Origin: Escherichia phage vB_EcoM_Lh1B
Length of the DNA: 64,000 nucleotides
Sequence record: OK428535.1
Strand: one strand, 5' to 3'
Under the pieces are notes generated by a model. That model did not search any database, had not been told where the DNA came from, and saw only the letters and a program-made list of their open reading frames with translations. A program made the position numbers and the translations under genes. Of this stretch, positions 55,828 to 57,834 are shown piece by piece; positions within the stretch are counted from its first letter, which is position 1, and each line of letters starts with the position of its first letter.

Positions 55828-56466
55828 ATGCAATTACAATTTCGTCAACGGTCTGTACTACTACCGTTTAGCGCTATATTAGGTTCGTTTACCAAAATGC
55901 TGTCTGTGGATTTTACTGCAGCTGAGAAAGAAGCGCTGTTATTGGCGGCAGTCGAAGAAGTATTGTGGGAGGCGTTTTACGTAGTGCCGTTTCGTAGCTG
56001 CTTAAACGCCCCGTATGTTGAAGGGCAGTTTGTCAGCGCGCTTTCCGCTGCAATTACCAAACGTAAACTAAATGCCATGGCACACGTCAAAGAGATCACC
56101 GCGCAACGAGGACGGATATTCGCTACCGTCAGAAATGTGTTAATTAAAGAAGGGTTTCTTGCAGATGCGTTAGGTCCCGAAGTTCCTTGGGAACCAGGCC
56201 ATCCGCCGCGTCAGTTTGACCACGGGTACAAGTTAAGTATAATTATGCCACGCGGTAAGCGTGACGTCTCATTGGGGAAATGGTTACAGATAAGTTGGGT
56301 TCGTCCTACTATCGATTGGCAAGAAATGTCGGTCAATCGCTATCTGGAACACCTGGCAAAAACACCGGCACAGTTTCACCGTTCAACAATCCTGCCGCTA
56401 CACTTGCTGTTAAAACCGTCCCTGTCATTGGCAGAAGCCAGATACCTGCTTAGTGGAGAGAAGTGA
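55828..56466 (+). CDS. hypothetical protein, 212 aa
   Basis: ORF with AAAAGGAA RBS; first gene of a four-gene operon. Confidence 0.6.
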   Translation: MQLQFRQRSVLLPFSAILGSFTKMLSVDFTAAEKEALLLAAVEEVLWEAFYVVPFRSCLNAPYVEGQFVSALSAAITKRKLNAMAHVKEITAQRGRIFATVRNVLIKEGFLADALGPEVPWEPGHPPRQFDHGYKLSIIMPRGKRDVSLGKWLQISWVRPTIDWQEMSVNRYLEHLAKTPAQFHRSTILPLHLLLKPSLSLAEARYLLSGEK

Positions 56467-56948
56467 TGCTTGTTATTAATGTGGTCGAGGATAAGATTCC
56501 CGCGAATGTTTATCCTGAACTGGTTGAATGGGTGCGCGACTTAAACAGTATCCGCGAGGAGCCTATTAAACTCACGATGTTTGTTGAGGATGATATCGTG
56601 CGGGGAATCATGGCATGGGAACCTGGCCATTTGGTCTATATGGTTGTGCCCGAAGAATCGCGGCGGGGCGGTGTCGGCAGATTTATGCTTAAGTATCTTC
56701 AGCAGAACTCCGATCGTAAACACATCAGCTGTCGTGTTCACCCGACCAACATTCCCGCGCTAGGATTCTTTCACCAACAAGGCTTCCAGATTGACCGATG
56801 GTATATTGCTGCTGACGGCCAACGGTATTTTCGTATGACGAACTACAATGTTATTTCGTCACACACGCCGCCGGAGGAAAAGCTTTTAACTCATTACGCT
56901 GAAAGCGTTCCCATTTTTCTTTCGATGGCAGAAGGTCATTTCGTCTAA
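56466..56948 (+). CDS. GNAT-family acetyltransferase-like protein
   Basis: Motif A ESRRGGVGRFML and motif B-like ALGFFHQQGFQ; ATG overlaps upstream stop. Confidence 0.6.
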   Translation: MLVINVVEDKIPANVYPELVEWVRDLNSIREEPIKLTMFVEDDIVRGIMAWEPGHLVYMVVPEESRRGGVGRFMLKYLQQNSDRKHISCRVHPTNIPALGFFHQQGFQIDRWYIAADGQRYFRMTNYNVISSHTPPEEKLLTHYAESVPIFLSMAEGHFV

Positions 56949-56965
56949 ACGAGCGAGAGTGTATA

Positions 56966-57442
56966 ATGATACGTGTTGCTTACGAAACACGAGATACGGA
57001 TGGAACCCGTATAAACGTCATCCGCCGTGTGGAGCTTGTTCCTCAGCATGAACTGAATATTGCAGACAGTTCGCTTAGGGGCACTCCTGTTAAGATTCTG
57101 AATCTTACGAGATGTTCTTTTCATCACAGTAAGACATCACCAGCAATACGGTCCAGTAAAAGAAAAAGTTATGCCGATTTAAAACGTCGGTTGTCCCGGC
57201 ATTTTCGTCGGAGTGCCTGGAAGGCTTTAGTTGAGGTTTTGGTCGACGAGCACCTTNTCCAGAGGTTGGAGTGGGAAGAAGTTCTCAAGGAAGCGGGCTA
57301 TCCAACAAAACCTTTCTCTTATCACTGGCATCACTTCAAAAAACAGTTCCATGATGCCTTACAGGTATCGCCAAACACTCGCAACATGATTCACCGTTTG
57401 GAGAAAATGGACTGGCTTCTACCCTATCTGGAAGAGGACTAG
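56966..57442 (+). CDS. hypothetical basic protein, 158 aa
   Basis: ORF in operon. Confidence 0.55.
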   Translation: MIRVAYETRDTDGTRINVIRRVELVPQHELNIADSSLRGTPVKILNLTRCSFHHSKTSPAIRSSKRKSYADLKRRLSRHFRRSAWKALVEVLVDEHLXQRLEWEEVLKEAGYPTKPFSYHWHHFKKQFHDALQVSPNTRNMIHRLEKMDWLLPYLEED

Positions 57443-57444
57443 AT

Positions 57445-57834
57445 ATGATGCGTGCTGTATTAGCTGTGTTTATAATTTGCGTTACTACGTCAGTATACGC
57501 GTTTACTGTTCAGGACTTCCCGCAATACAAACCAATGTGGGAAACTGACGCACCTGTGAAATTCAGCGACAAAGATGAACCAGTCGTGTCGGTGGAGAAG
57601 GGTGAGTTTGCCGTGGTCAACTACGGACGTTCTGAACTGTGTCCAGGCGGTGGCTTTTATCTCATTAACACAAAGCGTAAGACGTACCAGCCGATAGATG
57701 CCGGTACGTGTTCGCCGAAAGTTAAAGCGACAATTGTCCCGTCAGTACGAACACATCGCAGCGTTAATACCCACCAGTTAACTTTTTGGGTAGGTAAAGA
57801 AATTTCCGCGCGGTATCCTTTGTACGATTACTAA
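57445..57834 (+). CDS. putative secreted protein, 129 aa
   Basis: N-terminal signal-peptide-like MMRAVLAVFIICVTTSVYAF; terminator follows. Confidence 0.6.
   Translation: MMRAVLAVFIICVTTSVYAFTVQDFPQYKPMWETDAPVKFSDKDEPVVSVEKGEFAVVNYGRSELCPGGGFYLINTKRKTYQPIDAGTCSPKVKATIVPSVRTHRSVNTHQLTFWVGKEISARYPLYDY

Follow-up and report, generated by a model that had tools for sequence, protein, structure and literature searches.

The window analysed here is a stretch of 64,000 nucleotides from Escherichia phage vB_EcoM_Lh1B (record OK428535.1), a nucleus-forming jumbo phage belonging to Seoulvirus (Chimalliviridae), whose DNA is 97–98.7% identical to that of SPN3US and vB_EcoM_EC001. Four closely spaced ORFs on the + strand occupy positions 55828–57834, flanked by two strong intrinsic terminators. 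They correspond, in the same order, to SPN3US gp87–gp90 (SPN3US_0087–0090), with protein identities of 97.6%, 98.8%, 96.8% and 92.2% from gp87 to gp90; gp90 matches the EC001 copy exactly and those of other strains at 88–94% identity. The gp87 homologue (55828–56466, + strand) encodes a basic protein of 212 aa (pI 9.6), the gp88 homologue (56466–56948, +) a predicted stand-alone GNAT-superfamily N-acyltransferase of 160 aa, the gp89 homologue (56966–57442, +) a protein of 158 aa with a pI of 9.8, and the gp90 homologue (57445–57834, +) a 129-aa protein with a predicted Sec signal peptide. An earlier, sequence-only reading had placed and described all four ORFs correctly, including the GNAT-like second gene, the basic third protein (the first is basic as well) and the signal-peptide-bearing fourth. 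An alternative gp88 start at a GTG at 56463, giving 161 aa, was rejected as an artefact of the ORF lister; the ATG at 56466 is used in all annotated relatives.

The four genes are tightly packed: the gp87 stop and the gp88 ATG overlap (TGATG), gp88 and gp89 are separated by 17 nt and gp89 and gp90 by 2 nt, and a Shine-Dalgarno-like sequence precedes each of the four starts. The upstream terminator (55737–55760, +) has a 10-bp stem with 6 GC pairs, a GGAG loop and a T-run, and marks the end of the upstream gp82–gp86 unit. The downstream one (57842–57865) is a palindromic hairpin of 10 pairs, reported by the scanner for both strands; on the + strand it is followed by TGTTTATTAT. Terminator-like sites numbered 11 in 5 kb, compared to 4.7 ± 1.8 in shuffled sequences, with these two among the strongest; the hairpin candidates inside the unit are weaker (5–8 pairs, 3–4 of them G-C). 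Hairpins are also present at the position equivalent to 55737–55760 in Erwinia phage Caitlin and the uncultured relative L019, and immediately 3′ of the gp90 homologues in both (Caitlin 7382–7401, L019 6426–6453). Taking as an operon a gene run with a G+C-rich hairpin and T-run at both ends and no internal one as strong, these results show that gp87–gp90 constitute one terminator-bounded, translationally coupled transcription unit, in agreement with the operon that had been proposed from the sequence, two ten-pair hairpins, both with T-runs and among the strongest, enclosing the four coupled ORFs. Matches to sigma-70-like promoters in the region were no more frequent than expected by chance and the phiKZ-type TATATTAC promoter motif was not enriched. 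When the intergenic regions were scanned for k-mers, only terminator T-tracts and a ATCTTAAGGA motif emerged, the latter missing from the gp87–gp90 operon, and an Rfam scan of the region found no RNA family.

The block is widely conserved. All four genes, with their order and terminators unchanged, recur in SPN3US, vB_EcoM_EC001, SPFM, SPLA, SEGD1, JN03 and others, which differ from the copy described here by strain-level substitutions only; in these relatives the genes are annotated as hypothetical proteins and a 'putative acetyltransferase'. Of the 72 related phage records, all 72 have the GNAT and gp89, always side by side, 63 have gp90 and 42 have the remaining gene of the unit. Their dN/dS values (0.08, 0.02, 0.13 and 0.25) indicate purifying selection on all four. 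The GNAT–gp89–gp90 trio, its location and its flanking terminators are kept in Erwinia jumbo phages as well as in uncultured relatives at 27–45% protein identity, the GNAT being only ~27% identical there. Exceptions are Derbicusvirus, in which gp90 is replaced, and the distant lineage L017, in which the GNAT is present with no gp89 or gp90 adjoining. Since the whole gp82–gp95 region is collinear throughout the relatives, neighbourhood alone is no proof that the four proteins cooperate. A published comparison lists gp87–gp90 as common to SPN3US, phiEaH2 and CR5 but not phiKZ (Thomas 2016 Table S1, PMC5105663). The sequence-only reading had called the operon accessory, and this label does not hold: the fixed position, the terminators and dN/dS values of 0.02–0.25 form a lineage-core pattern, unlike that of a fast-turnover anti-defence cassette. 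The block is thus a lineage-core module of already catalogued genes, and neither novel nor a mobile anti-defence cassette.

All four proteins are missing from the 83 SPN3US virion proteins identified by mass spectrometry (Thomas 2016 Table S4, PMC5105663), whereas the neighbouring gp84, gp91, gp94 and gp95 were detected in SPN3US virions (Thomas 2016, PMC5105663). None of gp87–gp90 has a phiKZ virion homologue (Thomas 2016 Table S1, PMC5105663), a structural PHROG or a structural Pfam match. The expectation that the proteins are not structural was therefore borne out, as a search for virion or assembly homology that would have contradicted it found none; that they are not replicative is likewise consistent with Pfam and PHROGs, which revealed no replication or assembly homology. 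The profile searches that had been suggested as a check (Pfam, NCBIfam, PHROGs and PADLOC) returned only the GNAT and PHROG families of unknown function for the four proteins, with no match to characterised takeover, anti-defence or defence families and, in PADLOC, no match at E ≤ 1 for any of them. It is close to certain that the genes are SPN3US gp87–gp90 and that their products are non-virion and lineage-conserved.

We then consider gp88 in its own right. It passes the Pfam cut-offs for both Acetyltransf_1 (PF00583; 26.2 bits, cut-off 20.7) and Acetyltransf_10 (24.4 bits, cut-off 23.6) and belongs to the PHROGs acetyltransferase family phrog_7861. Within the motif ESRRGGVGRFML (residues 64–75) the motif A acyl-CoA pyrophosphate loop is intact, R66-R-G-G69-V-G71 conforming to the pattern R/Q-x-x-G-x-G/A; across 12 relatives, the most distant at 21% identity, R66 and G69 never change, and residue 71 is nearly always G or A (Y in CR5). 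As judged from its sequence, these matches show gp88 to be a divergent member of the GNAT superfamily whose acyl-CoA pyrophosphate-binding loop is intact. With PDB entry 7DQG, a 'putative acetyltransferase', it shares 158/160 residues (E 3e-108); the entry is thus evidently SPN3US gp88 with an 18-residue tag, and a literature search found no paper associated with it. The canonical general-acid Tyr in alpha4 (N-x-x-A-x-x-x-Y-x-x-x-G-F) is absent: in the alignments Phe102 of gp88 falls where YjaB and the Naa-like 6ZMP have their Tyr, and Phe takes this position in about 90% of gp88 family members, so that catalysis in this family may be atypical or absent. Many active GNATs have no such Tyr, which is a common feature and not a universal one.

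The best non-phage relatives of gp88 are YjaB (2kcw, E 2e-5 with the family profile), Ard1/Naa, RimI and Gcn5. Like E. coli YjaB (PDB 2KCW), RimI and archaeal and eukaryotic Ard1/Naa, gp88 has the R/Q-x-x-G-x-G/A loop and a predicted beta4-alpha3-beta5-alpha4 core. Unlike them, it has Phe for the alpha4 Tyr, a family-specific, conserved E41-D42-D43 cluster and a C-terminal extension of ~40 residues, and it scores only 18–28 bits on their models, far below the NCBIfam equivalog cut-offs of 86–134 bits (RimI TIGR01575, 23.3 versus 86.4; YjaB NF007853, 26.1 versus 125; PRK10514, 20.2 versus 134). A search of 1.84 billion representatives found only 20 relatives at E ≤ 1e-3, and from these alignments the gp88 lineage is a tiny, isolated GNAT group with no canonical Tyr.

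The same genomes encode, ~4 kb downstream, a second small GNAT of the gp95 type. Spermidine N-acetyltransferase activity has been demonstrated for the gp95 orthologues of Erwinia phages Caitlin (YP_009292176) and phiEaH2 (YP_007237670), and the SPN3US copy is inactive as a spermidine acetyltransferase (PMC9992855) and is packaged in the head (Thomas 2016, PMC5105663). Despite the shared superfamily, gp88 has no alignable similarity to the gp95-type enzymes and forms a separate GNAT family, and the SpeG model is not among its NCBIfam matches. We accordingly rejected an assignment of gp88 as a spermidine acetyltransferase, the active published enzymes being gp95 orthologues to which it cannot be aligned. 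Rac of the phiKMV-like phages is another phage GNAT, for which acetylation of a host protein (RNAP alpha) has been proposed or shown; its likeness to gp88 is one of functional analogy only. SPN3US-like phages carry their own RNAPs.

No domain from Pfam or NCBIfam was recognised in gp87 or gp89, and their structure models, which are moderately confident, gave no informative fold match. PDB searches with gp87, gp89 and gp90, both single-sequence and profile, found no relatives, and word-indexed searches of large databases with the same three proteins, all of them lineage-specific, returned matches only within the same phage clade. By its model, gp87 is a lineage-specific alpha/beta protein of unknown fold; it is the fastest-diverging slot of the four-gene unit, and in some relatives the slot is occupied by non-homologous ORFs. 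The gp89 model consists of an N-terminal three-strand beta unit (residues 1–50), a disordered basic linker (52–65) and, C-terminally, a helical domain in which five main helices are joined by a short terminal one and which carries the motifs RHFRRSAWK, LEWEEVLKEAGY and HWHHFKKQ.

The predicted Sec signal peptide of gp90 comprises residues 1–19 (nt 57445–57501), with cleavage at VYA↓F. We judged it by inspection against the usual Sec features (a positive n-region, an h-region of ~12–15 hydrophobic residues and small residues at −3/−1), and the N-terminus, MMR-AVLAVFIICVTTS-VYA↓F, has a charged n-region, a hydrophobic h-region and small −3/−1 residues, with Kyte-Doolittle windows above 1.8 across residues 1–20. 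The pattern is kept in most of nine aligned homologues (Huxley has N at −1), while the sequence itself varies. The mature part of ~110 aa contains the invariant Cys66 and Cys89 and the motifs CPGGGFYLVNTKRKTYQxIDAGTC and, C-terminally, ARYPLYDY. The protein belongs to phrog_5248 and has no relative in PDB or Pfam. It is the most deeply conserved component, being 45% identical to the L019 homologue (hhalign E 1.7e-43) where the GNAT is 27% identical. The conserved Sec-type signal peptide and the two invariant cysteines suggest that gp90 is probably a periplasmic, disulfide-bonded protein.

The explanation that we put forward, at somewhat less than even confidence, combines protein acetylation by gp88, a partner role for gp89, an envelope role for periplasmic gp90 and a variable leader slot for gp87. 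The module would be expressed within the infected cell, where gp88 would transfer an acetyl group from acetyl-CoA to an amino group of a host or phage protein. A protein substrate is proposed because the only detectable cellular relatives of gp88 (YjaB, RimI and Ard1/Naa) are protein N-alpha/N-epsilon acetyltransferases. The weakness of this likeness, 18–28 bits, counts against the protein-substrate reading. The substrate or catalytic site would probably be shaped by the acidic E-D-D cluster instead of the usual Tyr. Basic, two-domain gp89 is the most likely candidate for a partner or specificity factor of the GNAT, because it is always encoded beside it. After export to the periplasm, gp90, with its one predicted disulfide, may serve an envelope function such as excluding superinfecting phage or protecting or modulating the cell wall. 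A view that we regard as very doubtful unites GNAT, gp89 and gp90 in a single two-compartment system restricted to this nucleus-forming jumbo-phage branch, in which the Tyr-less acetyltransferase and basic helical gp89 would work in the cytoplasm and gp90 in the periplasm, with envelope remodelling or exclusion of superinfecting phage as example outcomes.

The four genes might instead be functionally unrelated neighbours, co-transcribed only through the collinear genome backbone. This would account for the gp82–gp95 order being kept in all relatives, for the non-homologous occupants of the gp87 slot, for the replacement of gp90 in Derbicusvirus and for the solitary GNAT of L017. We nevertheless consider it somewhat unlikely: terminators around exactly gp87–gp90 are kept at 27–45% protein identity, though their sequences differ, the genes are tightly coupled in translation, and the GNAT and gp89 never part in the 72 records. 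Unlikely to a greater degree is a host-takeover or anti-defence cassette, in which early acetylation by the GNAT would target a host protein of defence, transcription or translation in a Rac-like manner, the other three genes being auxiliary counter-defence functions. Such a cassette would fit the non-virion status of the proteins, their want of replication or assembly homology, the kinship of gp88 with protein acetyltransferases and a published proposal naming host RNAP or ribosomal proteins as modification targets of jumbo-phage GNATs (Iyer 2021, PMC7824862). The fixed position across genera and the strong purifying selection, however, are unlike those of typical variable anti-defence islands, and PADLOC, Pfam and PHROGs give no link to known systems. 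Furthermore, transcription in SPN3US-like phages relies on their own RNAPs and the nucleus shields their DNA, which leaves less need for RNAP takeover.

The remaining readings concern the chemistry of gp88. That it acetylates a small molecule (a polyamine, amino sugar, nucleotide-sugar or antibiotic) is an equally doubtful proposal: GNAT substrates are not readable from sequence, the acidic E-D-D cluster would fit a cationic substrate, and the same phages encode the gp95-type GNAT that is spermidine-active in Caitlin and phiEaH2 (PMC9992855), but gp88 has no detectable similarity to that family, its best relatives are protein acetyltransferases, and NCBIfam gave no SpeG or aminoglycoside acetyltransferase match, only 12–14-bit traces (ArsN2, PseH). 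Less likely still is a catalytically dead GNAT fold with a binding or scaffold role. The Phe that replaces the canonical Tyr across the family would agree with this, although many active GNATs do without that Tyr and retention of the R-x-x-G-x-G/A loop to 21–27% identity would be difficult to account for if no cofactor were bound. A precedent in this phage family is the nuclear-shell protein chimallin, which has a non-enzymatic GNAT-like domain (Laughlin 2022, PMC9365700). Finally, a toxin-antitoxin-like pair of the TacT/AtaT type, with a neighbouring gene neutralising a tRNA-acetylating toxin, is suggested by the translational coupling of a small GNAT to its upstream gene; we rejected it as highly improbable, since there is no antitoxin-like partner. 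An RHH/DUF1778 or other antitoxin domain is missing from both gp87 and gp89 and their models are not RHH folds, gp87 is 212 aa long, PADLOC gave no match, and the genes lie within an obligately lytic phage backbone.

Dozens of genomes already carried annotations of these genes, and a crystal structure of the GNAT has been deposited (7DQG). To this our analysis adds that the unit belongs to the lineage core instead of being accessory, that the GNAT, gp89 and gp90 travel together far beyond the cultured phages, and that gp88 appears to belong to an isolated, Tyr-less GNAT lineage distinct from the neighbouring GNAT of the spermidine-acetyltransferase type. If gp88 does acetylate a defined host or phage protein, the biology of nucleus-forming jumbo phages would gain a post-translational step of takeover or regulation, and gp89 and gp90 would be the first members of two orphan families to be characterised.

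The four-gene unit gp87–gp90 (window positions 55828–57834) lies within a 2.2-kb segment that aligns end to end, at 97–98.7% identity, with some 30 Seoulvirus genomes, Salmonella phage SPN3US and Escherichia phage vB_EcoM_EC001 among them. The four ORFs correspond to SPN3US_0087–SPN3US_0090, of which the second is annotated as a putative acetyltransferase and the other three as hypothetical; SPN3US itself, a jumbo phage related to phiKZ, has a genome of 240 kb and forms a nucleus (PMC5105663; PMC9365700). The ORF table and a hairpin scan confirmed the terminator-bounded layout proposed by the sequence-only reading, with four consecutive plus-strand ORFs: gp87 at 55828–56466, gp88 listed at 56463–56948 from a GTG start, gp89 at 56966–57442 and gp90 at 57445–57834. 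The GTG at 56463 was rejected as the gp88 start, since it is merely the ORF lister's earliest option and all annotated relatives use the ATG at 56466. The gp87 stop codon and the gp88 ATG overlap (TGATG), the later intergenic gaps are 17 nt and 2 nt, and all four starts have a purine-rich Shine-Dalgarno-like stretch upstream. The unit is flanked exactly by two terminator-like hairpins (55737–55760 upstream, 57842–57865 downstream) that rank among the strongest within the surrounding 5 kb; each has a ten-pair stem with six G-C pairs and a T-run after it. Within those 5 kb the scan found 11 terminator-like sites, against 4.7 +/- 1.8 for shuffled sequence; a search for Rfam families in the operon region found none. 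The predicted features of the individual products also held: motif A (ESRRGGVGRFML) occupies residues 64–75 of gp88, the basic third protein, gp89, has a pI of 9.8, and the N-terminus of the putatively secreted fourth protein, gp90, is a hydrophobic signal-like segment.

The window as a whole contains 280 N bases, scattered in some 40 small clusters (e.g. 6524–6975, 13518–13654 and 54663–54748), which give X residues in many translations. The reading frames of gp87–gp90 are unaffected; a single N at 57257 falls in gp89 codon 98, printed X, and another at 57950 lies inside the listed ORF 57892–58542, the gp91 homologue.

Upstream of the unit are genes for the virion proteins gp82–gp84, the RuvC-like Holliday-junction resolvase gp85 (54505–55155, phrog_159) and the membrane-like gp86 (55158–55730); downstream are those for the tail protein gp91, the DprA-like recombination mediator gp92 (58624–59223, phrog_768), the internal head protein gp94 and a second GNAT, gp95. 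The resolvase and the mediator, which bracket the region, both have phiKZ homologues (Thomas et al. 2016, Table S1). The gp86 homologue, directly 5′ of the operon and conserved in position in all relatives, is 190 aa long and has transmembrane-like hydrophobic stretches beginning near residue 100 (14 Kyte-Doolittle windows >1.6). With one mismatch allowed, the motif ATCTTAAGGA stands just 5′ of start codons in 8 of the window's 25 intergenic segments, for example ahead of the genes that begin at 27609, 29480 and 34876 and of the minus-strand gene 38176–39738, and represents an extended ribosome-binding or promoter-proximal element. Its absence upstream of gp87, gp91 and gp92 may set these genes apart as another expression class.

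Mass spectrometry of purified SPN3US particles identified 83 virion proteins, among them gp82, gp83, gp84, gp91, gp94, gp95 and gp97, with gp87–gp90 all absent (Thomas et al. 2016, Table S4; PMC5105663). Both gp88 and gp89 are common to Erwinia phage phiEaH2 and Cronobacter phage CR5, and neither has a phiKZ homologue (Table S1; PMC5105663). The homology to virion or assembly proteins that the sequence-only reading had named as refuting was thus not found, and its view that none of the four looks structural stands.

We searched 50,697 phage records by tblastn and found the GNAT gp88 in 72, gp89 in 72 with the same taxon mix (34 Erwinia, 33 Salmonella, 2 Cronobacter and others), gp90 in 63 and gp87 in 42. 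The order gp84, RuvC, gp86, followed by a ~200-aa ORF, GNAT, gp89 and (gp90), is the same in Caitlin, Huxley, Wellington, phiEaH2, STsAS, Phobos and CR5, and the block is retained in metagenomic contigs whose GNATs are only 24–31% identical. Clear gp89 homologues adjoin the GNAT in two of these contigs, L016 and L019 (hhalign E 2.9e-19 and 5e-17), gp89 and gp90 were not found at the GNAT position of a third, L017, and the ORF in the gp87 slot of the uncultured contigs has no detectable relation to gp87. In Caitlin and L019 the unit likewise sits between hairpin terminators, whose placement matches but whose stems are unrelated in sequence. Pooled dN/dS across eight Seoulvirus strains is 0.08 for gp87, 0.02 for gp88, 0.13 for gp89 and 0.25 for gp90. 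Among near-identical strains gp90 varies more than the other three proteins (88–100% identity), mostly within its signal peptide and a surface-like segment at residues 98–111; at long range it is the best conserved (45% identity to L019 5998–6426, E 1.7e-43, versus ~27% for the GNAT and ~30% for gp89). By its sequence signature, gp87–gp90 is thus a conserved, selected transcription unit. The label 'accessory' was not borne out, fixed synteny and low dN/dS not being the signature of a mobile or fast-turnover island.

The GNAT-like character of gp88 was upheld by profile searches, with 26.2 bits against Pfam Acetyltransf_1 (cut-off 20.7) and a match to PHROG 7861, "acetyltransferase". The protein is identical at 158 of 160 residues to PDB 7DQG, "Putative acetyltransferase", for which a literature search found no paper. 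The nearest solved relatives by family profile are all weak: E. coli YjaB (E 2e-5), the putative acetyltransferase 3LD2, the N-terminal acetyltransferases Ard1/Naa, Gcn5 and RimI. The top NCBIfam traces (PRK10562, RimI and PRK10514) each fall four- to six-fold under cut-off, and when phmmer was run exhaustively over 1.84 billion cluster representatives, only 20 proteins reached E <= 1e-3; judged from these comparisons, gp88 is a small, isolated GNAT lineage. Across 12 members, with identity down to 21%, R66 and G69 of the CoA loop never vary, nor do D42, G47 and V61. Conservation of this loop speaks for cofactor binding. At the canonical Tyr position in alpha4 ~90% of members have Phe102, so catalysis may be atypical or absent.

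Assignment of gp88 to the spermidine N-acetyltransferase (SAT) family of Erwinia phages was rejected. The active enzymes, Caitlin YP_009292176 and phiEaH2 YP_007237670 (PMC9992855), are orthologues of gp95, with which gp88 has no alignable similarity, so that gp88 and the SAT-type GNATs are separate families; SPN3US gp95 was inactive in the same assay (PMC9992855). Downstream of gp94 the window carries tandem GNAT genes, 60670–61131 (ORF listed 60637–61131) and the gp95 homologue 61131–61595. The former scores 63.7 bits against Pfam Acetyltransf_1, shares 34% identity with the latter and is annotated in vB_EcoM_EC001 as MGA_97. SPN3US has no counterpart of it, gp95 directly following gp94, and the window therefore holds three GNAT genes within 5 kb; L019 has a tandem pair at the equivalent place. 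In SPN3US virions gp95 is packaged in the head (Thomas et al. 2016, Table S4); an injected acetyltransferase is arguably a better candidate than gp88 for the suggested host-takeover role.

The other three proteins have no match in Pfam, NCBIfam or PADLOC and no sequence relative in the PDB. The predicted gp87 model (pLDDT 79, pTM 0.76) shows a compact alpha/beta architecture without a specific structural neighbour in the PDB, and its only BFVD neighbours are Erwinia jumbo-phage orthologues. Homologues of gp90 share an N-terminal signal peptide conserved in form and variable in sequence, in most members with small residues (A-x-A type; Huxley has N at -1) and then an invariant Phe20. They also have invariant Cys66 and Cys89 and the motifs CPGGGFYLVN..R.TYQ.IDAG.C and ARYPLY; together these features fit a protein that is exported to the periplasm and disulfide-bonded. 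In Derbicusvirus the place of gp90 is taken by an unrelated 224-aa protein (CR5_084, L005 6056–6727; Phobos gp87, L013 3561–4235) annotated 'D-alanyl-D-alanine carboxypeptidase', which has neither a Pfam match nor a signal peptide but carries an E-S...G-I-I-Q-F pattern reminiscent of lytic transglycosylases.

Collectively, our results show that gp87–gp90 is a co-transcribed, non-virion module holding a CoA-loop-bearing GNAT, a constantly associated basic two-domain protein and a signal-peptide protein. In the mechanism we propose, gp88 would acetylate an amine on a host or phage protein in the cytoplasm, with gp89 as its probable partner, while gp90 would act separately in the periplasm, in superinfection exclusion or an envelope-related task. 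The chance that the substrate is a protein is a little under even, and a small-molecule substrate seems improbable. Collinearity extends across the entire region, which leaves functional coupling of all four genes unproven; that they are no more than collinear neighbours is rather unlikely.

Public databases already contain these genes with their annotation, as well as the GNAT crystal structure, and the unit is of a known kind, a phage GNAT with orphan ORFs, from which it does not depart. What our analysis adds is modest: the unit is lineage-core, its GNAT–gp89–gp90 trio is deeply conserved, and gp88 represents an isolated, Tyr-less lineage distinct from the SAT-type GNATs.
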